Of a DNA stretch of 64,000 bases, positions 5,863-44,422 are shown piece by piece. The stretch spans positions 67,407 to 131,406 of the forward strand of contig CP011212.1 in the NCBI GenBank assembly GCA_001029715.1. The letters run 5' to 3'. This DNA is from a candidate division TM6 bacterium GW2011_GWF2_28_16. GTDB lineage: Bacteria > Patescibacteriota > Microgenomatia > UBA1400 > PJMF01. A program made the translations under genes and the position numbers. How positions within the stretch are numbered: the stretch's first letter is position 1; the number at the start of each line of letters is the position of its first letter. Under the pieces are notes generated by a model. That model ran no database searches. It had not been told where the DNA came from and saw only the letters and a program-made list of their open reading frames with translations.

Positions 5863-6435
5863 ATGCGACAGGTTAATTTAGTTAATGATCAAGATGAAAT
5901 AATTGGGCAAACCGATCTCTTGGATGCTCATAGGGGAGAAGGAAAGAAGCATCAGGCTATTTCTTTATTTTTGTTTCATAAAAAAAGAAATGGCGAATTT
6001 GAACTATTAATTCAACAACGTAGCAATGAAAAAATTGTTGGTGCTTTAGAGTGGGCCAATACAATCTGTGCAAATTTATTACCAGGAGAAAATCATTTAA
6101 CTTGTTTGAAAAGAAGGGTTTTTGAAGAGCTTGGAATTAGATGGCAAGAGGAATGGCCACTAGAAAAAACAATGATTTTTGATTATCAAATTCCTTGCGA
6201 AAATGGTTTTTGTGAAAATGAAATTGATCATATTTTCGTTTCAGTTTTAGATGAAAAGCTGATTTCTAATTTGGAAATTTCACTAAATCCAAAAGAAGTG
6301 GTTGCCACTAGTTGGATTGATTGGAATGATCTCAAACTTAAAAAAGTAGGGGAGAAAAAAATAACTCCTTGGCTTAATCTATTTTTAGATAGCTCAGAAA
6401 TTATTAAAAAAATTGATCGGATGCTCATAAAATGA
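5863..6435 (+). CDS. idi: isopentenyl-diphosphate delta-isomerase, type 1 (Nudix fold)
   Basis: Matches the type-1 IDI layout: HRGEGKKHQAISLFLF.., QQRSNEKI.., WANTICANLLPGE, VFEELGI. Confidence 0.72.
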   Translation: MRQVNLVNDQDEIIGQTDLLDAHRGEGKKHQAISLFLFHKKRNGEFELLIQQRSNEKIVGALEWANTICANLLPGENHLTCLKRRVFEELGIRWQEEWPLEKTMIFDYQIPCENGFCENEIDHIFVSVLDEKLISNLEISLNPKEVVATSWIDWNDLKLKKVGEKKITPWLNLFLDSSEIIKKIDRMLIK

Positions 6436-8044: not shown

Positions 8045-8383
8045 TTAATTAAAAGTCAAAACATCTATCCCCAAAAATCCTTCTAAGAGTAAGAAAATTG
8101 CAGTCACGGCGGCTAAAATAATTAGGCCAATAACGGCATTGCCAATTCTACTTCTGGCTTTTTCTAACTTGCCTGAATCACCTGCAGAGGTAATCCACTC
8201 AATTGCTCCCCAGATCAAAAAACCAAAAACTAGCACTGCTGCTAAAGTCATTACTGCGCTCATGATATTGCCAAAAAATAATCCAAAGCCACCATCACTG
8301 GAGTTGGCATATTCAGCACCTTGCAAACCTTGGCTTTGAGCTTCTCCAGCAATGTCTAATGTTAGAGCTATTTGTCTTGTCAT
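8045..8383 (-). CDS. TrbC/VirB2-like T4SS-pilin-family protein (paralog 3)
   Basis: Core WGAIEWITSAGDSGKLEKARSRIGNAVIGLIILAAVTAIF. Confidence 0.75.
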   Translation of the reverse strand: MTRQIALTLDIAGEAQSQGLQGAEYANSSDGGFGLFFGNIMSAVMTLAAVLVFGFLIWGAIEWITSAGDSGKLEKARSRIGNAVIGLIILAAVTAIFLLLEGFLGIDVLTFN

Positions 8384-28109: not shown

Positions 28110-28187
28110 GCTTTTATTTTAGCATGCTTTAAGGAGCGGCTGTGCACCCTGCGGGTACTACCCAGGTTTGCTTTGCAAACTTGGCGG

Positions 28188-28261
28188 TGCGTGTGCTAGG
28201 ACTCGAACCTAGAACCGCCAAGGTATAAGCTTGGAGCTCTAACCAATTGAGCTACACACGC
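28188..28261 (-). tRNA. tRNA-Ile, anticodon UAU
   Basis: The minus-strand sequence folds into a clean 74-nt cloverleaf: acceptor GCGTGTG/CACACGC, D arm GCTC-AATTGGTTA-GAGC, anticodon stem CCAAG/CTTGG with loop C-T-TAT-A-C, variable CGGTT, T arm CTAGG-TTCGAGT-CCTAG, discriminator A. CCA is not encoded. Confidence 0.88.
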
Positions 28262-28303: not shown

Positions 28304-29287
28304 TTATAGAAGTAGTAGCAAGAGTGCGCCAACGCCTAGGGCTCCAAGGCCAGCTTTAATGTAGTTCATCCAATCAGCTGGGCCACTTTCAGTAGGAACG
28401 TTGATTGGGCGCACGATGGTGGTTTCACCATTTGCTAATTTGCATTGACTATCTGTAGGATTGACGTCGAGGCGACATTGACCGCTGTAACAAATATGAC
28501 TAATGTTGCTACAGTCAGCATTGGCATTACAAGTTTCGTTGCAGCCAACAGTGGTAATAACGGTGGTAACAGATGGAGTTGGAGTGCTGGTAGCGGTCAC
28601 AGTAGTAGTTGGAGTTACGGTTGTAGTTACAGTAGTGGTTGGAGTAACAGTTGTAGTAACGGTTGGAGTAACAGTTACGGTTGCTTCACAACAAGTTGTG
28701 CTACTAGGATCGGCGACACATTCATCGAGATAATCTTCATCTGCACAGTATTTAACAATGTTTCCATCGCCATCAGTATCTGAAGTAGAAATACAAACAT
28801 AACCATCTTCGCAGTCATCGCTGTTGGTACAGTCTTTTTCACCACAAGAAAGCAAGTTTTCTTCTGGAGCGGTGCAACAAGAGTCAGTGTTTGGATCATC
28901 TATACAGGCTGTTTTATAATCTTCATCTGCACAATATTTATTGCCATTGTCGGCCTCAATACAAATTAAATTACTGCTACAGTCATCGTCACTTTCGCAA
29001 CCACTCAAACCACAGGTAATTTTATCTGGTTCTGTAACTGTAAATTCAAGAGTACAAGTTTGAGTTTTTTCAATATAAGCAGCTGGCTGAGATTGAGGGG
29101 CAGTTGGGGCGACTGGAGTAGTGTCTTGTTTTTGCGTAATTAAGAAAACACTAACTGCGCCACCAACAAAAATTAGTAGACCCAGCAACATAGCGATCAC
29201 TTTAAAATCGCCTTTTTTCTTCAGAGCAGTTTGTCCTTGCTTTGATTTTACGTAGGTCGCTGGTGTTTCAATTTGTTCTATGTTCAT
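28304..29287 (-). CDS. Cys-rich surface protein with N-terminal signal anchor, T/V/P repeat stalk and C-terminal hydrophobic anchor
   Basis: The TM is FKVIAMLLGLLIFVGGAVSVFLI. Two roughly 50-aa modules (CG..(G/D)C..(D/S)DDC.....C......YCADEDY...C..DP.....CC) are followed by (TVTPTTTV)n, a third degenerate module, and the terminal GLGALGVGALLLLLL. Confidence 0.7.
   Translation of the reverse strand: MNIEQIETPATYVKSKQGQTALKKKGDFKVIAMLLGLLIFVGGAVSVFLITQKQDTTPVAPTAPQSQPAAYIEKTQTCTLEFTVTEPDKITCGLSGCESDDDCSSNLICIEADNGNKYCADEDYKTACIDDPNTDSCCTAPEENLLSCGEKDCTNSDDCEDGYVCISTSDTDGDGNIVKYCADEDYLDECVADPSSTTCCEATVTVTPTVTTTVTPTTTVTTTVTPTTTVTATSTPTPSVTTVITTVGCNETCNANADCSNISHICYSGQCRLDVNPTDSQCKLANGETTIVRPINVPTESGPADWMNYIKAGLGALGVGALLLLLL
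28590..28684. repeat. imperfect ~24-nt tandem repeat inside the CDS, encoding (TVTPTTTV)n
   Basis: Repeating units such as ggttggagtaacagttgtagtaac are visible on the plus strand. The wider T/V/P-coding tract spans about 28549-28686. Confidence 0.7.
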
Positions 29288-29291
29288 TATT

Positions 29292-30683
29292 TTAATTCAC
29301 ATTATCTATCATTGTGCTTGGTGAATTATCCACCATTTCCCAAACTTGGCATTCCGTTCCCCAGCAAATACGACCCTGGACAACGTAATCTCCAAAGCTT
29401 GAAATGGTGTAGGAATCAGATACATTTTTAGCAATTGCGCCACTAGTGTCAGTTAGATCTATCCAAGAGCTCATGCCTGGAGCCCAGATTCTAAATTCAT
29501 AATTAAAGTCAACTCCTTGGTTGCCGACAGCAGTGCAACGGAAGCGCACCTCATCTCCGTCCTTGAGACTATCATCATCGTTTGCTTCCATAGTATTGTT
29601 ATTAGCATCTAGCATATCTATGCTGGCACAAACTGGCATAGCCTGGCTTTCACAACAATTGGCAGTGCTTGGATCAGCTGCGCAAAACAATTGATTTTCT
29701 CCTTTGGCACAAATACCAGTCGATTGAGAGTCGACTGTTACTGTTTGACAAGTAAGACCATTTTGACAGTCAGAATTTTGAGTACAACCAATCACTCCGC
29801 AGGCTAAAAGTTCTGGAGGTGTAGTAGGAGTTGGAGTAGGTGTTCTATTTGGAGGATTAGTTGGAGTAGGGGTTGGTGTGGCGCAATCTGAACAATCAGC
29901 TCCAGCATCACCGCATAAAGCATCACAACTTGAGGCACTGCCTATCACCCACCAGCCAGCGCTACATTGGCAACGCATTAAGCCAGATTCTTCACAGTTT
30001 TCGATTACTGAAGTATTTGGATTGTCGCACCAATCTCCGCCCATGGATTGTTCTGTGCACGGATCTTGATCGGTAACGTAACCGCACATGGTATCGCCAT
30101 TGGCGATTATTCTACAGGTAGTACTAACACATGGTCCACCAGCTACGAGTCTATGCAGATTTGGACCGCAGGCCGCCACAGTTGTGGTTGGAGTAACGGT
30201 CGAACCACCCGTGGGTGTACAGGCACCATCAATTACACGATAGCCAGTAATACATCTTCCACTAGTACCATTACAATATGGATCTCCTTCCATACACATC
30301 TCACTGGCTTGTTGGCGGTTGTCTTGATTTTGTCTGCTAAGTATATAACTAGAAAAAACCCCAACTACCAAGAAAAAAACTATAAGTAAGCCAGCCAATT
30401 TATTATTTGATTTCTTTTTCACTTGAAAAGATGGTTTTTGATCAGTTGAAAGTGGATTTTGAATAGAAACAGTTTCAGCACCTGACTTAACTGCCTCTTT
30501 GAGAGGTTCATTATCTGTAATTGTATTACCGCGATATTCTGGTATTTCTGGTTCTTTAGCAAGATCATTCCAAGGGGAATCAATTTTTTCTGGTTCTTTA
30601 ACAAAGTTATCGGAAGAATCCTCTGCCTTGTCTATCTGGCTTTTTTTATATTTAGCTGGTATAAAATCTCTAGGATTATTCAT
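29292..30683 (-). CDS. Cys-rich surface protein (signal anchor, PT-linker, shared Cys module, C-terminal beta-rich domain)
   Basis: About 95 aa of cytoplasmic N-terminus precede the TM LAGLLIVFFLVVGVFSSYIL. Then come a Cys-rich region, a PTPTPTPTNPPNRTPTPTPTTPP linker, and the module CGVIGCTQNSDCQNGLTC...FCAADPSTANCC shared with the neighbouring gene. Confidence 0.7.
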   Translation of the reverse strand: MNNPRDFIPAKYKKSQIDKAEDSSDNFVKEPEKIDSPWNDLAKEPEIPEYRGNTITDNEPLKEAVKSGAETVSIQNPLSTDQKPSFQVKKKSNNKLAGLLIVFFLVVGVFSSYILSRQNQDNRQQASEMCMEGDPYCNGTSGRCITGYRVIDGACTPTGGSTVTPTTTVAACGPNLHRLVAGGPCVSTTCRIIANGDTMCGYVTDQDPCTEQSMGGDWCDNPNTSVIENCEESGLMRCQCSAGWWVIGSASSCDALCGDAGADCSDCATPTPTPTNPPNRTPTPTPTTPPELLACGVIGCTQNSDCQNGLTCQTVTVDSQSTGICAKGENQLFCAADPSTANCCESQAMPVCASIDMLDANNNTMEANDDDSLKDGDEVRFRCTAVGNQGVDFNYEFRIWAPGMSSWIDLTDTSGAIAKNVSDSYTISSFGDYVVQGRICWGTECQVWEMVDNSPSTMIDNVN

Positions 30684-38301: not shown

Positions 38302-39774
38302 TTATTGGCAATTCCATTTTTCTATTGTTTGTAGCTCGTGCTCCAAAAAACAATTTTCATTTAAAATTTTTCGAACTTCTTCTTTGTTTTTTAAATTATC
38401 TTGATATTCTTTTTCTAGATAAAGTTTTTTTGATTTCAATAGGCTCTCTAAACTACTGAGATTGTTGAGATAAATTCTATTGGTAACTTCGCTATTTTTA
38501 TTTTCATTAGACTTAATATATGTTGAATCATTTTCCATAGTATTAATGCTTAGAGTGTCTAGAAGAATACTTTCTGGAAAATATAAACTTAGCTCATTTC
38601 TTTCTTTGGTGAGATATTCAATTTTTTCTAATCTTTGTTTTGAATAAATACTTTTTAAGTTTGATAAGTTTTGAGGAATCCAAATAATAAACATCAGGAG
38701 AATTATCAAAAAAATATTGTTTTTTTTGATAAATATTTTTTTCACATAAAAAACAAAAAATATGATGTAAAGAATATGCGCTCTTGGAATCAAAACTGAT
38801 ACGTTTGGAAAAATTGTTCCAATTTTATAAATAGATGACAATATTGGAGATAGCAATGAGTAGCTCAAGGTAATTATAAATGGAGTGCTTACTAGCAACG
38901 CTATTTCTTTATTTTTTTTGAGGGTTTTGCTTTTTATGATTTTGGAAGTTATAAAAATTGTTATTAATATGAATATTAAAATTGTTAAAAATTTATTTTT
39001 AAAAATATTAATTCCAATGTTTTCTAAATAAAAACTGCTCAAATTTAAAAGAGTGGGCTTTTTTATCCAATCAATATTATTAAACTGCTGATAATTTTTA
39101 TAAGCACTGATAAGTAAAAATTCAAAAAAATAAATAAGTAGAAAACTTAGATATTGGATTATCTTTTTATTTTTATATAGTAGATAAGAAATTAATGTGA
39201 CCGCTAATACTATAAAACTATAGTCAACATAAATTCCCAGAACTGTTGATAAAATTAGCAAGAATAATGTTTTTTTATTTTTATTATTTAGATAGAGGTC
39301 AAATAAGATAATACTGGTACTACCAATAAAAATTAATAAGCTATACATTCTCAGTTGCCATGATTGTTGAATTATAAGAGGATGAAAACTTATTAAAGTC
39401 GCAAGCAAAACAGCAGAAAAAAAGTCTTTTCTAGTTTTTAATTTATAAAAAGATAAAAATATTATTGCTAGAACTTGAAAAACTAGAGAAGATAAAATTC
39501 TTAAAAATGTTAAATCTCTAGTAAAGAAAAGCAAAAATTTTAGATACAAATAATATCCCCCAGGATGTACATCCTGATTGAAATTAATAGCCATTTCTTT
39601 GAAATTGTATCTTTGAGTAAAAAACAAGGAATATTTTTCATCCAGCCACAGCGGTTGTGTTTTGATCGTGTATAATTTGATTATTATTCCAGACAGAATT
39701 ATAAGAAAAAGAATTATCTTTTCCTTTTTCTGAGGAATGCTATTTATATAAGTTTTAATAGATTTAAGTTTCAT
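38302..39774 (-). CDS. GT-C fold membrane glycosyltransferase (ArnT/PMT, GT39/GT83-like)
   Basis: About 12 TM helices, with the early loop PLWLDEKYSLFF carrying a D-E motif typical of GT-C enzymes. ATG 39774 (MKLKSIKTY..) is preferred over 39828. Confidence 0.6.
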   Translation of the reverse strand: MKLKSIKTYINSIPQKKEKIILFLIILSGIIIKLYTIKTQPLWLDEKYSLFFTQRYNFKEMAINFNQDVHPGGYYLYLKFLLFFTRDLTFLRILSSLVFQVLAIIFLSFYKLKTRKDFFSAVLLATLISFHPLIIQQSWQLRMYSLLIFIGSTSIILFDLYLNNKNKKTLFLLILSTVLGIYVDYSFIVLAVTLISYLLYKNKKIIQYLSFLLIYFFEFLLISAYKNYQQFNNIDWIKKPTLLNLSSFYLENIGINIFKNKFLTILIFILITIFITSKIIKSKTLKKNKEIALLVSTPFIITLSYSLLSPILSSIYKIGTIFPNVSVLIPRAHILYIIFFVFYVKKIFIKKNNIFLIILLMFIIWIPQNLSNLKSIYSKQRLEKIEYLTKERNELSLYFPESILLDTLSINTMENDSTYIKSNENKNSEVTNRIYLNNLSSLESLLKSKKLYLEKEYQDNLKNKEEVRKILNENCFLEHELQTIEKWNCQ

Positions 39775-40678
39775 GGATAAAAAAGTTTCAGTAGTCATTG
39801 TAACAAAAAATAGACAGAATGATCTCACTCATTGCCTCGGTTCACTCCTATCTCAATCCATTGTTTTAGACCAGTTGATTTTAATCGATAATAACTCAAC
39901 TGATAAAACAAAAGAAATTTTCTCTAACTTTGCTAAGAATAGCCAGATACCATGTAAATATGTTTTAGAAAAAAGAAAAGGATATCCTACCGTCTACAAT
40001 CGAGGTTTAAAAGAAGCTAAAAACACTTGGGTGGCATTTATTGATGATGATTGCGTAGCAGATGTTGATTGGTACATGAATATTAAAAAAAGAGTAAATA
40101 AAGAACGCGATGTTAATTTAGCTGCTATTCTTGGTTTTTCAGACACTTATTATCAAACAGATATTTTTTCTTTAGCCACCAATTTCTTTGATTTAATCTG
40201 GAAAAAATCAGGAAGCATTGGAGGAAAAGTAAGAGATTTCGAAATCCTTGATAACAAAAACATTGTTTACAATAAAAACTTTTTAATTAAAAACAAGTTA
40301 AGCTTTGATGAATCTAGAGTAAGGTTTTTCAATGGAGCTAGTGAAGATTGTGATTTAGGTAGACAAATATTTGAAACTAAAAAAGCTGTGGCTATTTATG
40401 ATAGATCAATCAAAATTTGGCATAAAGATCCGGTGAATTTTTCTTGGTTTGTAAAAAAATATTTATCTTCCATTAGTGCTTACTCTTATTATCTAAGTAA
40501 GTGGGGAAATGAATCCCACAATTTAGTTAAAAATAAAATTAACTTTAAAAAAGAACTCATTCTTTTTATTAAGCACCACAGAATTAAATCTTTTAAAAAA
40601 ATAGCTTTATATATTTTGATATATTTTCATGTGGTGCTAGATTATTTCTTTCTCTTGTTTTATAAATCTAAACACTGA
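39773..40678 (+). CDS. glycosyltransferase family 2 (copy A)
   Basis: Shows VSVVIVTKNRQNDLTHCLGSLLSQS, ILIDNNSTD and AFIDDDC (DxD). Confidence 0.85.
   Translation: MDKKVSVVIVTKNRQNDLTHCLGSLLSQSIVLDQLILIDNNSTDKTKEIFSNFAKNSQIPCKYVLEKRKGYPTVYNRGLKEAKNTWVAFIDDDCVADVDWYMNIKKRVNKERDVNLAAILGFSDTYYQTDIFSLATNFFDLIWKKSGSIGGKVRDFEILDNKNIVYNKNFLIKNKLSFDESRVRFFNGASEDCDLGRQIFETKKAVAIYDRSIKIWHKDPVNFSWFVKKYLSSISAYSYYLSKWGNESHNLVKNKINFKKELILFIKHHRIKSFKKIALYILIYFHVVLDYFFLLFYKSKH
39818..40074. repeat. 257-bp block, 100% identical to 41883-42139
   Basis: Compared base by base by eye. Covers the N-terminal halves of the two GT2 genes. Confidence 0.9.
40234..40361. repeat. 128-bp block, 100% identical to 42302-42429
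   Basis: Compared by eye. The offset is 2068 nt versus 2065 nt for block 1, and the blocks are separated by strongly diverged sequence. Confidence 0.88.
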
Positions 40679-40680
40679 TT

Positions 40681-41841
40681 ATGAAAAAATTTCTATTTAT
40701 TTCAGAAACATATCCGTCTGGATTGACTGGCACCAGTGTTAAGACGAGAAACACTATCCAGCATTTGCTGAAATTAGGTCATAAGGTTGATGTAGCCTGT
40801 ATAAGTTTTGACACCTTGGTTAAAAAAGAACTCAAGCATAAAAATTTTAGAGCATTTGCTATCCGTGAAAAAGGAATAAGACGTTTTCGTATAGGTTGGT
40901 TTTGGCGTGTTTTTGAAATTATTTTTACCTATAAACCCTTTATTGTGAGTTCTATTTTTAATAAAAAAGTGCAAATGGTTTTTGATGCGCTCGGAGAAGA
41001 GTACGACAGAGTCTTTTTTGATGGTTTTGCTACTCTTCAATATGCTAGAAAGAAAGATGCTAGATATATTTACATAGATGATGAAGATATAACCTACTTG
41101 ATGAAAAGAAGAGTTGATCAGGAATCAAATATTTTTCTAAAAATATTTTTATATACAGAGTTCCTGAGATCCTTGTTTTTTGAAAAAATAAAGCTCTCTT
41201 ATATGGATCAGGTTTGGGCGATCGCTAAAGAAGATCAGAAACGTTTAAAAACTCTTAGTCCTTCAAAAACTTTATTGATGCCAACTTTAATTGAAGAACA
41301 AAAAAACTGTTTTTCTAAAAAATCTAAAGACTTTATTTTTGTGGGAACTTTAAGTTGGAGGGAAAATTATTTGGGTTTAAGGTGGTTTATTAAAAACTGT
41401 TGGTCTGAAATTTCAAATGATTTTCCAGATTCAAAATTATTAATAGTTGGTCAACAAGGAGATGATAGCTGGGAAAAACTGATTAAAAATTATAAAAACA
41501 TCAAGTTGCTTGGGTTCGTAGACGAGCTAGATTCTGTTTTCAAAAAATCCGCCATCGCTATTTCACCTGTTTTTGTAAATGTTGGGATTAAAATTAAGGT
41601 TTTAACTTATTTGTCTTATGGAATTCCAACAATCTCTACAAAGATATCAACCGGAGGAATGGCAAGTACAAACGGTATTTATTTAGCAAATAAAAATAAT
41701 TTTGCTAAAAAAACTAAAGAACTTTTTAAAAAATCAGATCTGAGATTAAAACTATCCAAAGAAGGTTGGGAAAATATCAAAAAGAACCATTCAAACTCTG
41801 CTTTAGATTTGTTTTTTTCAAAAAGTAAGATTTTTGATTAA
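40681..41841 (+). CDS. glycosyltransferase family 4 (GT-B)
   Basis: Shows FIFVGTLSWRENYLGLRWFI..., KLLIVGQ and the C-terminal ..SPVFVNVGIKIKVLTYLSYGIPTIST. Confidence 0.75.
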   Translation: MKKFLFISETYPSGLTGTSVKTRNTIQHLLKLGHKVDVACISFDTLVKKELKHKNFRAFAIREKGIRRFRIGWFWRVFEIIFTYKPFIVSSIFNKKVQMVFDALGEEYDRVFFDGFATLQYARKKDARYIYIDDEDITYLMKRRVDQESNIFLKIFLYTEFLRSLFFEKIKLSYMDQVWAIAKEDQKRLKTLSPSKTLLMPTLIEEQKNCFSKKSKDFIFVGTLSWRENYLGLRWFIKNCWSEISNDFPDSKLLIVGQQGDDSWEKLIKNYKNIKLLGFVDELDSVFKKSAIAISPVFVNVGIKIKVLTYLSYGIPTISTKISTGGMASTNGIYLANKNNFAKKTKELFKKSDLRLKLSKEGWENIKKNHSNSALDLFFSKSKIFD

Positions 41842-41843
41842 TT

Positions 41844-42746
41844 ATGAAAATTTCTGTTGTTATAGTTAGTAAAAATAGGAGTAATGATCTCACTCATTGC
41901 CTCGGTTCACTCCTATCTCAATCCATTGTTTTAGACCAGTTGATTTTAATCGATAATAACTCAACTGATAAAACAAAAGAAATTTTCTCTAACTTTGCTA
42001 AGAATAGCCAGATACCATGTAAATATGTTTTAGAAAAAAGAAAAGGATATCCTACCGTCTACAATCGAGGTTTAAAAGAAGCTAAAAACACTTGGGTGGC
42101 ATTTATTGATGATGATTGCGTAGCAGATGTTGATTGGTATGAGAGTATTAAAAAAGAACTTTTATCTCTAGATATAAATACTGAAATAGTAGCAATTTTA
42201 GGAAATTCTCAAACTTATTATAAAAATAATCTCTTTTCTCTTTTAACCCTCTTCAAAGATAAAATTTGGAAAGGATCTAAAATTAAGAAAAATAAGGTTT
42301 TAGATTTCGAAATCCTTGATAACAAAAACATTGTTTACAATAAAAACTTTTTAATTAAAAACAAGTTAAGCTTTGATGAATCTAGAGTAAGGTTTTTCAA
42401 TGGAGCTAGTGAAGATTGTGATTTAGGTATGCAAATATTTGAGAAAAAAGGCAAAGCAAAATATTTACCGGAAATGTTAGTTTTTCATAAGGATCCTCAT
42501 AGCTCTTTTCAGTTTTATAGAAAAATATATTTTTCAACTCTTGGTCATATCAAATATGAGGAAAAGTGGAGCAATTTTAGAAAAAACAACTTAGCAATTA
42601 ATCATGATTTTAATTTTTTTCGCTTCACAATGAGTTTTATGAATGAAAATAAGCTTTCATTTTTACAGAAAGTACTTTTTGCTGTTAACTTATTATTGAT
42701 GGCTTTTTTATTAAAAGGAATTAAATTTTATGTCAAAAGTTTTTAA
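41844..42746 (+). CDS. glycosyltransferase family 2 (copy B, mosaic paralog of 39773-40678)
   Basis: Carries the same GT2 motifs and shares two perfectly identical nucleotide blocks with copy A. Confidence 0.85.
   Translation: MKISVVIVSKNRSNDLTHCLGSLLSQSIVLDQLILIDNNSTDKTKEIFSNFAKNSQIPCKYVLEKRKGYPTVYNRGLKEAKNTWVAFIDDDCVADVDWYESIKKELLSLDINTEIVAILGNSQTYYKNNLFSLLTLFKDKIWKGSKIKKNKVLDFEILDNKNIVYNKNFLIKNKLSFDESRVRFFNGASEDCDLGMQIFEKKGKAKYLPEMLVFHKDPHSSFQFYRKIYFSTLGHIKYEEKWSNFRKNNLAINHDFNFFRFTMSFMNENKLSFLQKVLFAVNLLLMAFLLKGIKFYVKSF
41883..42139. repeat. 257-bp block identical to 39818-40074
   Basis: See the partner block. Confidence 0.9.
42302..42429. repeat. 128-bp block identical to 40234-40361
   Basis: See the partner block. 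Confidence 0.88.
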
Positions 42747-43713
42747 TAAAATTTTAGTAACAGGAGGAGCTGGTTTTATAGGTTCTCATCTTGTTACTCG
42801 TTTATTAAAAGATGGATATGAAGTTACATTAATAGATGACCTATCTAGGGGTAATATTAAATTTTTAGATTTTTTAAAAGAAAAACCAAAATTTTTAAAA
42901 ATGGATTTAAGCAAAGAGGAGGGTTTACTTAAAGTTTTTGAAGGGCATGATCTAGTTTTTAACTTAGCAGCTCTTAATACTGGGGTAGATTATGATGAAG
43001 GTAGAACTCAGCTCATGTTTGAAAATAATATGCTTTTACAAATGATTCCTCTTCGTGTGGCTGCCAAAACTAAATCAATAAAAAAGTTTATTCAAATTAG
43101 CTCAGCCTCAGTTTATTCTAGAGAAGTTATGAACAAGGTTCCATGTATCAAAGAAGAGTCAGACACTAATAATCCAGAGCCTTCAAAGCTGGGTTATGCC
43201 CTCGCCAAAAAAATGGGAGAAAATTTGGCTTCTTGGTATGCGTCTAACAGTAAGCTAGAAACAATTTCTGCAAGATTTATTAATGTTTTTGGAGAGAATG
43301 ACCACTATGATCAACTTGGGCATTTCATTCCTATGATGATTAGAAAAATTATTGAAGCAGAAAAAAAAGTTGAGGTTTTTGGTAGTGGTAATCAAAGCAG
43401 ATCTTTTGTTTACGTAGAAGACGTAGCTGATGCTCTTTTATTGCTTGCAAAAAAGGGCAAGAACGGAGAAATCTATAACGTAGATGCCAACCAGGAGAAA
43501 ACAGTTAAAGAAGTTGTTTCGATGATCAAAAAATATCTAAAAAAAGATTTACAAGTAAATTTTGATCTTAGCAAGCCAGAGGGTTCAAAAAGAAGAATGC
43601 TGGATAGTAGTAAGCTGAGAAGCTTGGGTTGGAAACCAAAGACATCTTTTGCTCTGGCTCTTAAAAAAACAATTAAAGATATTAATGAAAGAATAAAAAG
43701 TGAAAACTCTTAA
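42730..43713 (+). CDS. NAD-dependent nucleotide-sugar epimerase/dehydratase (SDR family)
   Basis: Shows ILVTGGAGFIGSHL (Rossmann fold) and YALAKKMGE (the YxxxK catalytic pair). Confidence 0.85.
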   Translation: MSKVFNKILVTGGAGFIGSHLVTRLLKDGYEVTLIDDLSRGNIKFLDFLKEKPKFLKMDLSKEEGLLKVFEGHDLVFNLAALNTGVDYDEGRTQLMFENNMLLQMIPLRVAAKTKSIKKFIQISSASVYSREVMNKVPCIKEESDTNNPEPSKLGYALAKKMGENLASWYASNSKLETISARFINVFGENDHYDQLGHFIPMMIRKIIEAEKKVEVFGSGNQSRSFVYVEDVADALLLLAKKGKNGEIYNVDANQEKTVKEVVSMIKKYLKKDLQVNFDLSKPEGSKRRMLDSSKLRSLGWKPKTSFALALKKTIKDINERIKSENS

Positions 43714-44422
43714 AATCTTTGACCAGAGAGTTGATTCTTTGTCTTTTAAAGAATGTTTTAAGCTAACTAAACTAGCGGTTTCTTCTAAAGAGAAGAAGCT
43801 GTTTTTTGCATTGAACATTCATATCTTAAATTTGCTTTCAAAAGACAAAACTTTTAAAAACAAACATAAAAAAATAGCAAGCGTTATATTTTCAGATGGT
43901 TTGCCACTCGTCATTTTGTCGAGATTAAAATCTGTCAGTAAGGAAAAAATTATAGAAAGAATTAGTGGAACAGATCTTGTTGAAAAAATTTTAGAGGATA
44001 AGTCATTAAAAGTTTTTATTTTGGGAAGTGATGAAAAAACCTTGGAAGTTTTACAGAAAAAGTATAAGAATATAACTGGTTTTTATTCTCCGCCTTACAG
44101 TAATAATTGGTCTAATAAAGAAAATTTAAAAATTATTGAAAAAATAAAAACTTCTAAAGCCAATGTTTTATTAATTGGAGTTGGCCCATTAAAACAAGAG
44201 AAATGGCTGTTAAAATATTTTGATCAAATAGAAAATTTATATGTTGGAATAGGTGTAGGGTCAGCTTTTGATATTCTTTCTGGAAAAACACCTCGAGCTC
44301 CAAAATTGTTTAGAAATTTTTCTTTAGAATGGTTGTGGAGATTGATTCTTGAACCAAGGCGCTTATTTAGACGTTATTTTGATGATTCTAAATTTTTATT
44401 CAAGCTTTTTTTCCATTATTAA
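43700..44422 (+). CDS. WecG/TagA/CpsF family glycosyltransferase (GT26)
   Basis: GTG start. Shows FSDGLPLV, ..GVGPLKQEKW.. and SLEWLWRLILEPRRLFRRY. Confidence 0.82.
   Translation: MKTLKIFDQRVDSLSFKECFKLTKLAVSSKEKKLFFALNIHILNLLSKDKTFKNKHKKIASVIFSDGLPLVILSRLKSVSKEKIIERISGTDLVEKILEDKSLKVFILGSDEKTLEVLQKKYKNITGFYSPPYSNNWSNKENLKIIEKIKTSKANVLLIGVGPLKQEKWLLKYFDQIENLYVGIGVGSAFDILSGKTPRAPKLFRNFSLEWLWRLILEPRRLFRRYFDDSKFLFKLFFHY

Follow-up and report, generated by a model that had tools for sequence, protein, structure and literature searches.

The question raised by this locus is how two neighbouring genes can be identical to the letter over long runs and strongly diverged between and after them. The genes, here called GT2a and GT2b, encode predicted family-2 glycosyltransferases (GT2) and flank a GT4-type glycosyltransferase gene in a 64,000-nucleotide (nt) stretch of DNA from a Patescibacteria bacterium of the candidate phyla radiation (CPR). 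We refer to this whole stretch as the window, and all positions are counted within it. The answer to which the evidence leads, with high confidence, is that GT2a and GT2b go back to an old tandem duplication in a conserved cell-surface glycan operon, and that repeated gene conversion has been superimposed on it in one species-level lineage.

Two blocks of exact identity between diverged paralogs

String comparison finds two blocks, of 257 and 128 nt, that are shared without a mismatch by GT2a and GT2b (Table 1). Both are maximal, since the bases on either side differ. The copies lie 2065 nt apart for block 1 and 2068 nt apart for block 2, and the two spacings differ because the segment between the blocks measures 159 nt in GT2a and 162 nt in GT2b. 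Outside the blocks, the codon-aligned nt identity of the two genes is 69% in the first 39 aligned nt, 57% in the middle segment and 49% in the C-terminal third, and the corresponding amino acid identities are 77% in the 5' part, 44% and 30%. An earlier reading of this DNA (hereafter the original prediction) had described perfectly matching blocks of these two lengths, strong divergence between and after them, and direct repeats about 2.07 kb apart that bracket the GT4 gene; all of this is borne out by the string comparison and the codon alignment.

The identity of GT2a and GT2b in the blocks is real and non-random. Their alignment contains 247 differences in 891 aligned nt, and the longest identical runs measure 257, 128 and then 10 nt, whereas the longest identical run obtained in a Sawyer-type test with 100,000 shuffles of the variable sites was 52 nt. 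At conserved residues, the same codon is used at 83 of 84 positions in block 1 and at 42 of 42 in block 2, as opposed to a codon identity of 60-82% in the same columns of a/b pairs from related species. A repeat search of the whole window found no other long repeats besides the two blocks.

An old duplication under young blocks

A protein search returned many contigs carrying two members of the GT2 family of the window. Three related species (L008, L009 and L010/L011/L013) keep the order GT2a-GT4-GT2b-epimerase-WecG, and the order upstream of it is kept as well, with a Wzy-like gene, an unknown gene and a membrane protein gene on the minus strand preceding GT2a. The GT4 proteins of these species are 69% (L008), 69% (L009) and 56% (L010/L011/L013) identical to that of the window, and wherever a relative has both GT2 genes, GT4 lies between them. 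More distant relatives, in which the epimerase-WecG/TagA order is also the same, have a single GT2 gene before GT4 or two adjacent GT2 genes.

In the three related species the two GT2 copies share 47-53% of their amino acids, and a search between the GT2 pairs of nine related loci revealed no identical blocks, the longest exact a/b matches being 38 nt in L008, 17 nt in L009 and 17 nt in L010. The unshared parts of the window genes follow their orthologs instead: over residues 1-15, the middle segment and the C-terminus, GT2a is nearer to the a-orthologs and GT2b nearer to the b-orthologs. For the a-type middle, the identity is 52-54% to a-orthologs versus 38% to b-orthologs; for the b-type middle, amino acid identity is 62-63% to b-orthologs versus 46-48% to a-orthologs.

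Neighbour-joining trees of separate segments, built from four a-copies and four b-copies of four species, place all a-copies together (93% bootstrap) and all b-copies together (80%) when the middle and C-terminal columns are used, and in the unshared segments GT2b of the window groups with the b-copies of L008 and L009 at 99% bootstrap. In the trees of the blocks, on the other hand, the a and b copies of the window are nearest neighbours, with 100% support in block 1 and 96% in block 2. Such discordance between segment trees is the standard signature of gene conversion over an old duplication and, together with the conserved gene order, the segment trees establish that the GT2a/GT2b duplication predates the split from the three related species.

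The original prediction had opposed recent conversion or recombination to a simple old duplication. Conversion stands, on the strength of the discordant trees and of the concerted evolution and strain-varying tract ends described below, but the opposition does not, for the duplication is indeed old. Uniformly diverged paralogs in relatives had been regarded beforehand as a sign against conversion; they are seen in the more distant relatives, and yet they support it, because they date the blocks of the window as lineage-specific conversion.

Three strains with tracts in different states

The closest comparison is offered by MM, a sister strain with 96% overall DNA identity to the window, for which two contigs are available: L007, which takes in GT2a from nt 154 onwards together with GT4 and the beginning of GT2b, and L012, which covers GT2b from residue 56. 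For a third strain, S3, there is L093, a contig of 1065 nt that stems from an unrelated run.

Block 1 shows concerted evolution, the two copies of each strain sharing substitutions of that strain's own. Over its 3' 131 nt there are no differences between GT2a and GT2b in the window and one between them in MM, as against eight between the GT2a copies of the two strains and seven between their GT2b copies. Block 2 has a different history. Over its 128 nt the copies of the window are again without differences, while those of MM differ at 25 sites; between strains, the GT2b copies differ at 26 sites and the GT2a copies at three. Because the MM copies are unhomogenised and GT2a has changed so little between the strains, a recent a-to-b event can be read from block 2, in which GT2a was the donor and GT2b the recipient, and which took place after the window and MM had split. 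The tract in S3 ends earlier than in the window, with about 104 nt converted: in the first 104 nt of block 2, GT2b of S3 has no differences to GT2a of MM versus 22 to GT2b of MM, and in the last 24 nt it has three and four, respectively. Compared with more distant species, the protein sequence of block 2 is b-like in the window and in MM alike, which points to an older conversion from b to a that preceded the recent a-to-b event.

The sharp 3' edge of block 1 is common to all three strains; its 5' edge appears to vary. L007 (2092 nt) extends from the GT2a copy of block 1 to the GT2b copy, starting 141 nt before the single a/b difference and ending 141 nt past the last a/b-distinguishing base on the 5' side. 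For an assembly with k=141, these ends imply that block 1 of MM is a perfect repeat of about 261 nt, starting some 12 nt further upstream than that of the window, and the two N-terminal peptides of MM (P0111 and P0112), which both read NRSNDL, agree with such a shift. The ends of L007 overlap by 21 nt, which gives the contig a circular look, but it is no evidence for an excised circle, the contig being simply the repeat unit of a k=141 graph.

Beyond this lineage, the two copies of L010 are somewhat more alike in block 1 (70% of amino acids, about 74% of nt, 50% bootstrap), which would be no more than a faint sign of an older event that took place independently. The 38-nt match of L008 lies over the DxD motif (6247-6284 and 8309-8346 of that contig), where its close relative L009 has 17 nt, and it may be a very short conversion tract. 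As a signal of older conversion, the codon identity of L008 and L009 does not contrast decisively with ortholog comparisons.

The C-terminal segments have also moved apart at unequal rates between the window and MM: GT2b differs at 28 of 293 nt (42430-42746 versus L012) and GT2a at 4 of 317 (40362-40678 versus L007). The faster divergence of GT2b suggests relaxed or diversifying selection on this gene. A scan of a genome collection with GT4 returned a single 2-kb contig, from strain MM, and a scan of a metagenome collection with GT2b returned mostly distant relatives and one close contig (L012), with no population series of the window strain.

Placement of the blocks on a predicted GT-A fold

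An AlphaFold2 model of GT2a, computed from a 54-sequence alignment, has a mean predicted local distance difference test score (pLDDT) of 95.3 and adopts a GT-A fold. In a Foldseek comparison to solved structures, its best matches in the PDB are K4CP chondroitin polymerase, WrtF, AvpGT, TarP and SpsA, with E values of about 1e-12. On this model, block 1 corresponds to the Rossmann-like nucleotide-binding subdomain, including the DDD motif, an assignment based on the high-confidence (pLDDT 95) GT-A model and on the invariant columns of the family alignment. The motif (D91-D93) follows a strand at residues 86-91; D91 and D93 are invariant in the family alignment and D92 nearly so. In block 2, the same alignment has N163 and D192 invariant and E191 and D194 nearly invariant and, by analogy with solved GT-A enzymes, this block should hold the predicted catalytic base. 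It seems plausible that the unshared parts set acceptor choice or membrane association.

The structures of K4CP (2z86/2z87), SpsA (1h7q), TarP (6h1j) and WrtF (9omh) resemble GT2a in fold, in the N-terminal nucleotide-binding subdomain with its DxD motif and in a conserved acidic residue in the second half. They differ from GT2a and GT2b in sequence, with only 13-25% identity, and the long helices in the C-terminal 80 residues of the window proteins are not found in this form in the solved GT-A structures.

The placement of the nucleotide-sugar-binding and DxD part in a conserved N-terminal half, as originally proposed, thus fits the model and the invariant columns of block 1. The accompanying division into a conserved N-terminal and a variable C-terminal half has to be amended: the N-terminal core is conserved, but block 2 lies in the second half, so that each protein consists of two cores and two variable modules.

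A model for the origin of the mosaic

The mosaic is best explained by RecA-type, non-reciprocal homologous recombination between the same-orientation copies 2.07 kb apart. Block 1 had become homogeneous by the time of the ancestor of the window and MM and has been re-homogenised since. Block 2 of the window was copied from GT2a to GT2b only after the two strains had split, and the third strain has a shorter tract. The middle segment and the C-terminal helices have remained a- or b-specific. Conversion presumably starts at motifs where the paralogs keep enough identity to recombine. The tracts do sit in the regions where the unconverted paralogs of other species resemble each other most closely (nt identity of up to 88% in 60-nt intervals, and the 38-nt exact match of L008 at the DxD motif), and a block that is already identical would be a still better substrate for recombination. 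A tract might then stop at the steep drop of identity at the block edges, or selection might remove tracts that enter the presumed acceptor modules, or both. The sharp 3' edge of block 1 would be accounted for in this way by the adjacent sequence, which at about 57% identity would block extension. The net effect would be a pair of enzymes that share their donor-binding and catalytic cores but differ in the modules on the acceptor side. Most likely, conversion is here a by-product of recombination and not a regulatory device.

Glycan variation and a hybrid GT2b

The opposite possibility is that the locus acts as a recombinational device for glycan variation. The repeats would delete or amplify GT4 together with a hybrid GT2 gene, as put forward in the original prediction, or swap GT2 modules, so that surface glycans would vary between cells of one population. 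The direct repeats of 257 and 128 nt on either side of GT4 are adequate substrates for homologous recombination, and the gonococcal lgt locus offers a precedent (PMC2191774, PMC2192810). Nevertheless, no deletion of GT4, fusion of GT2a and GT2b beside the epimerase gene or tandem amplification was found among the contigs of the window strain, MM, S3 and the three related species, a small sample made of assembled contigs. The three-gene order is conserved across species in which GT4 itself is only 56-69% identical. Phase-variable simple repeats are missing too: the genes hold no slippage-prone homopolymer or short tandem tracts, and their longest homopolymer, of 7 nt, is background in an AT-rich genome (the window has 132 A/T runs of 7 nt and 40 of 8 nt). 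We thus regard a dedicated variation device as unlikely.

The only structural variant that we found bears on the swapping of modules. A 224-kb scaffold (L001/L092) is identical to the window over 20.9 kb except for the b-type middle segment of GT2b, which is replaced by an a-type middle. All 73 alignment columns that differ between L001 and the window over these 20.9 kb lie in 42140-42301, and the variant has a single 544-nt identical tract and a GT2b of 299 residues (P0114; L001 12072-12971). P0114 is present on four contigs from JGI and ENA assemblies, which match the window exactly elsewhere. A genuine further conversion, with the blocks as homology arms, and a wrong path through the assembly graph are equally conceivable as its origin. 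On each of the four contigs the swap goes the same way, and a reciprocal hybrid of GT2a was not seen, which speaks for a real allele. In favour of an artefact, a perfect repeat of 544 nt should be harder, not easier, to assemble through, and the hybrid is just what a de Bruijn-graph assembler would yield by mistake where two alternative middles are flanked by shared blocks. We offer only as a speculation, with a low probability of proving right, that the blocks serve as built-in homology arms for the exchange of the 52-residue, presumed acceptor-facing middle, and that P0114 is a real and common aquifer allele. If this were true, a cassette-like swapping of modules between paralogs would make cells of a single CPR strain differ in their surface glycan.

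Assembly support for the repeat

A second alternative to conversion is that the identical blocks are an artefact of assembly, arising from repeat collapse or from a chimeric path between strain variants. All the data are short-read metagenome assemblies, contigs of several assemblies break within the blocks, and one assembly family (L001) arranges the same pieces differently. However, the same mosaic has been obtained by different groups with different assemblers. The window is identical to a contig of the metagenome-assembled genome (MAG) GCA_003543755.1, a UBA MAG, and both GT2 proteins are found, residue for residue, on an 853,053-nt contig of 'candidate division TM6 bacterium GW2011_GWF2_28_16' (AKM81047.1 and AKM81049.1, the latter being GT2b). 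Two other strains, from unrelated datasets, have the same blocks with substitutions of their own and different tract ends, a pattern that would not be expected of an artefact. Moreover, a collapse can create neither the unique GT4 gene between the copies nor the two different middle segments, and we conclude that the repeat is real and that only the last percent or so of identity could be due to assembler smoothing. The breaks themselves are informative. Among other contigs of the same strain, L003 ends 77 nt and L004 118 nt into block 1 of GT2b, and L006 begins 55 nt before the end of block 2 of GT2a. These distances from the block edges (55, 77 and 118 nt, and the 141 nt of L007) are typical assembly word sizes, so that the contigs stop as short-read de Bruijn-graph assemblies do at a true repeat. 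An artefact is accordingly very improbable.

The least probable alternative dispenses with conversion, by assuming that extreme purifying selection keeps the blocks or that a recent partial duplication of GT2a had its other segments replaced: although the blocks fall on the motifs that are best conserved in the family, where the a/b nt identity of related species also peaks, selection on the protein does not fix synonymous sites to the degree seen in the codon counts above, the 5' end, middle and C-terminus of GT2b are orthologous to the b-copies of other species, and MM retains an unconverted, b-type block 2.

Repeated conversion over an old duplication thus remains the best account of the locus, but several observations weigh against it or blur its details. 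Short-read bubble-popping could have erased a few true differences between the copies, in which case the apparent identity of 100% would perhaps be about 98-99%. The DNA evidence for MM and S3 consists of contig ends and one 1-kb contig. Finally, the diagnostic amino acid sites of block 1 give a mixed signal of direction, with nine of a-type, four of b-type and five of neither; these mixed states fit a two-way exchange over time.

Gene content and genomic setting

The GT2 pair is housed in a surface-polysaccharide cluster at 30788-53310. Both genes match PF00535 well above its curated cut-off (86.1 and 82.5 bits versus 23.3), and the locus is listed feature by feature in Table 1. Rfam and tRNA scans found nothing relevant at GT2a-GT4-GT2b. 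Close relatives carry the labels Patescibacteria or Pacebacteria.

Table 1. Genes and segments of the GT2a-GT4-GT2b locus (positions within the window; residue numbers and structural elements refer to GT2a and its model; ORF, open reading frame)
Feature	Position	Strand	Length	Residues	Remarks
GT2a	39773-40678	+	301 aa		ORF; PF00535, E=3.5e-24; predicted family-2 glycosyltransferase, GT-A fold
Block 1, GT2a copy	39818-40074	+	257 nt	16-101	Exact, maximal match to 41883-42139; first helix to just past DDD motif; predicted nucleotide-sugar-binding subdomain
a-type middle segment	40075-40233	+	159 nt	102-153	Not homogenised in the window; unshared; modelled as helix, long strand, long helix
Block 2, GT2a copy	40234-40361	+	128 nt	154-197	Exact, maximal match to 42302-42429; modelled strand 163-167 and following helices
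C-terminus of GT2a				198-301	Unshared; modelled as strand, then long helices
GT4-type glycosyltransferase	40681-41841	+	386 aa		ORF; PF13692 and PF00534; unique gene between the repeats
GT2b	41844-42746	+	300 aa		ORF; PF00535, E=4.2e-23; old paralog of GT2a
Block 1, GT2b copy	41883-42139	+	257 nt		Exact, maximal match to 39818-40074
b-type middle segment	42140-42301	+	162 nt		a-type replacement in assembly variant L001/P0114
Block 2, GT2b copy	42302-42429	+	128 nt		Recipient of recent a-to-b conversion
NAD-dependent sugar epimerase/dehydratase	42730-43713	+			ORF and Pfam; overlaps GT2b and the WecG/TagA gene
WecG/TagA-family transferase	43700-44422	+			ORF and Pfam; overlaps the epimerase gene

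Further genes of the cluster encode an ABC-2 permease and its ATPase, two Wzy_C-domain proteins (521 and 766 aa), a GFO/IDH/MocA oxidoreductase, a DegT aminotransferase and a Bac_transf initiating transferase, as well as two large membrane proteins of 508 and 490 aa that have no Pfam match; the L009 counterpart of the 490-aa protein has a weak PMT match. Two adjacent minus-strand ORFs at 28304-29287 and 29292-30683 (327 and 463 aa), also without a Pfam match, contain periodic repeats of 12/18 nt at 28587-28682, with related copies at 29839 and 30178. They probably encode low-complexity surface proteins, and they adjoin the ABC-2 transporter genes of the glycan cluster. The sole tRNA in the window is a tRNA-Ile with anticodon TAT (UAU) at 28186-28261 on the minus strand. 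In most bacteria, AUA is decoded by a lysidine-modified CAU tRNA.

Significance and comparison with known systems

Gene conversion between bacterial paralogs is already well established, and our finding leaves existing knowledge unchanged. Its value lies in providing a clean natural example in a Patescibacteria/CPR genome, with three strains caught in three tract states, which shows active homologous recombination between nearby repeats in reduced genomes of this kind. From the mosaic one can also tell the parts of these GT2 enzymes that can be interchanged, namely the donor-binding and catalytic cores, from those that stay distinct, namely the middle loop region and the C-terminal helices, a useful guide for engineering or for the assignment of specificity. 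From a practical standpoint, it carries a warning as well: blocks of this kind break short-read assemblies or allow a wrong path through them, and hybrid genes in MAGs should be distrusted unless they have read support.

Among loci of similar geometry, the lgt locus of Neisseria gonorrhoeae and N. meningitidis is comparable in that homologous transferase genes lie around another transferase gene in a surface-glycan locus, an arrangement that permits recombination. In the gonococcal lgtA-B-C-D-E cluster, as originally reported, genes one and two have their homologues in genes four and five, with a third transferase gene in between (Gotschlich 1994, PMC2191774). Of these genes, strain 15253 is reported to keep lgtA and lgtE alone (Erwin et al. 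1996, PMC2192810), and Neisseria glycans reportedly vary via poly-G tracts (PMC2192423). We do not claim membership in this class for the window: the lgt locus is strain-variable and has poly-G tracts, whereas neither a deletion variant nor a slippage tract was found here.

A closer parallel is the domain-limited concerted evolution of the operon-internal paralogs mtrA-1 and mtrA-2 of methanogens (Wang et al. 2015, PMC4632066), a process whose recurrence in prokaryotes has been surveyed (Wang & Chen 2018, PMC6053082). The GT2 locus displays the hallmarks of concerted evolution: its paralogs predate the divergence of the genomes, they are more alike than orthologs within the tract, the identity spans long fragments and includes synonymous sites, and for one event donor and recipient are known. 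As in mtrA, an ancient duplication within one operon has had one part homogenised by recurrent conversion and another kept distinct, to the point that the two copies of one genome resemble each other more than they do their orthologs in other genomes. Unlike the methanogen genes, those described here are GT2 glycosyltransferases of a CPR bacterium, and their conversion involves two short tracts of about 100-260 nt that are split by a diverged segment. Whereas the concerted evolution of mtrA is described as very long-lasting, that of GT2a and GT2b is seen only in, and so appears confined to one species-level lineage, with a weak older trace in L010, and the differences between strains in where the tracts end are directly visible.

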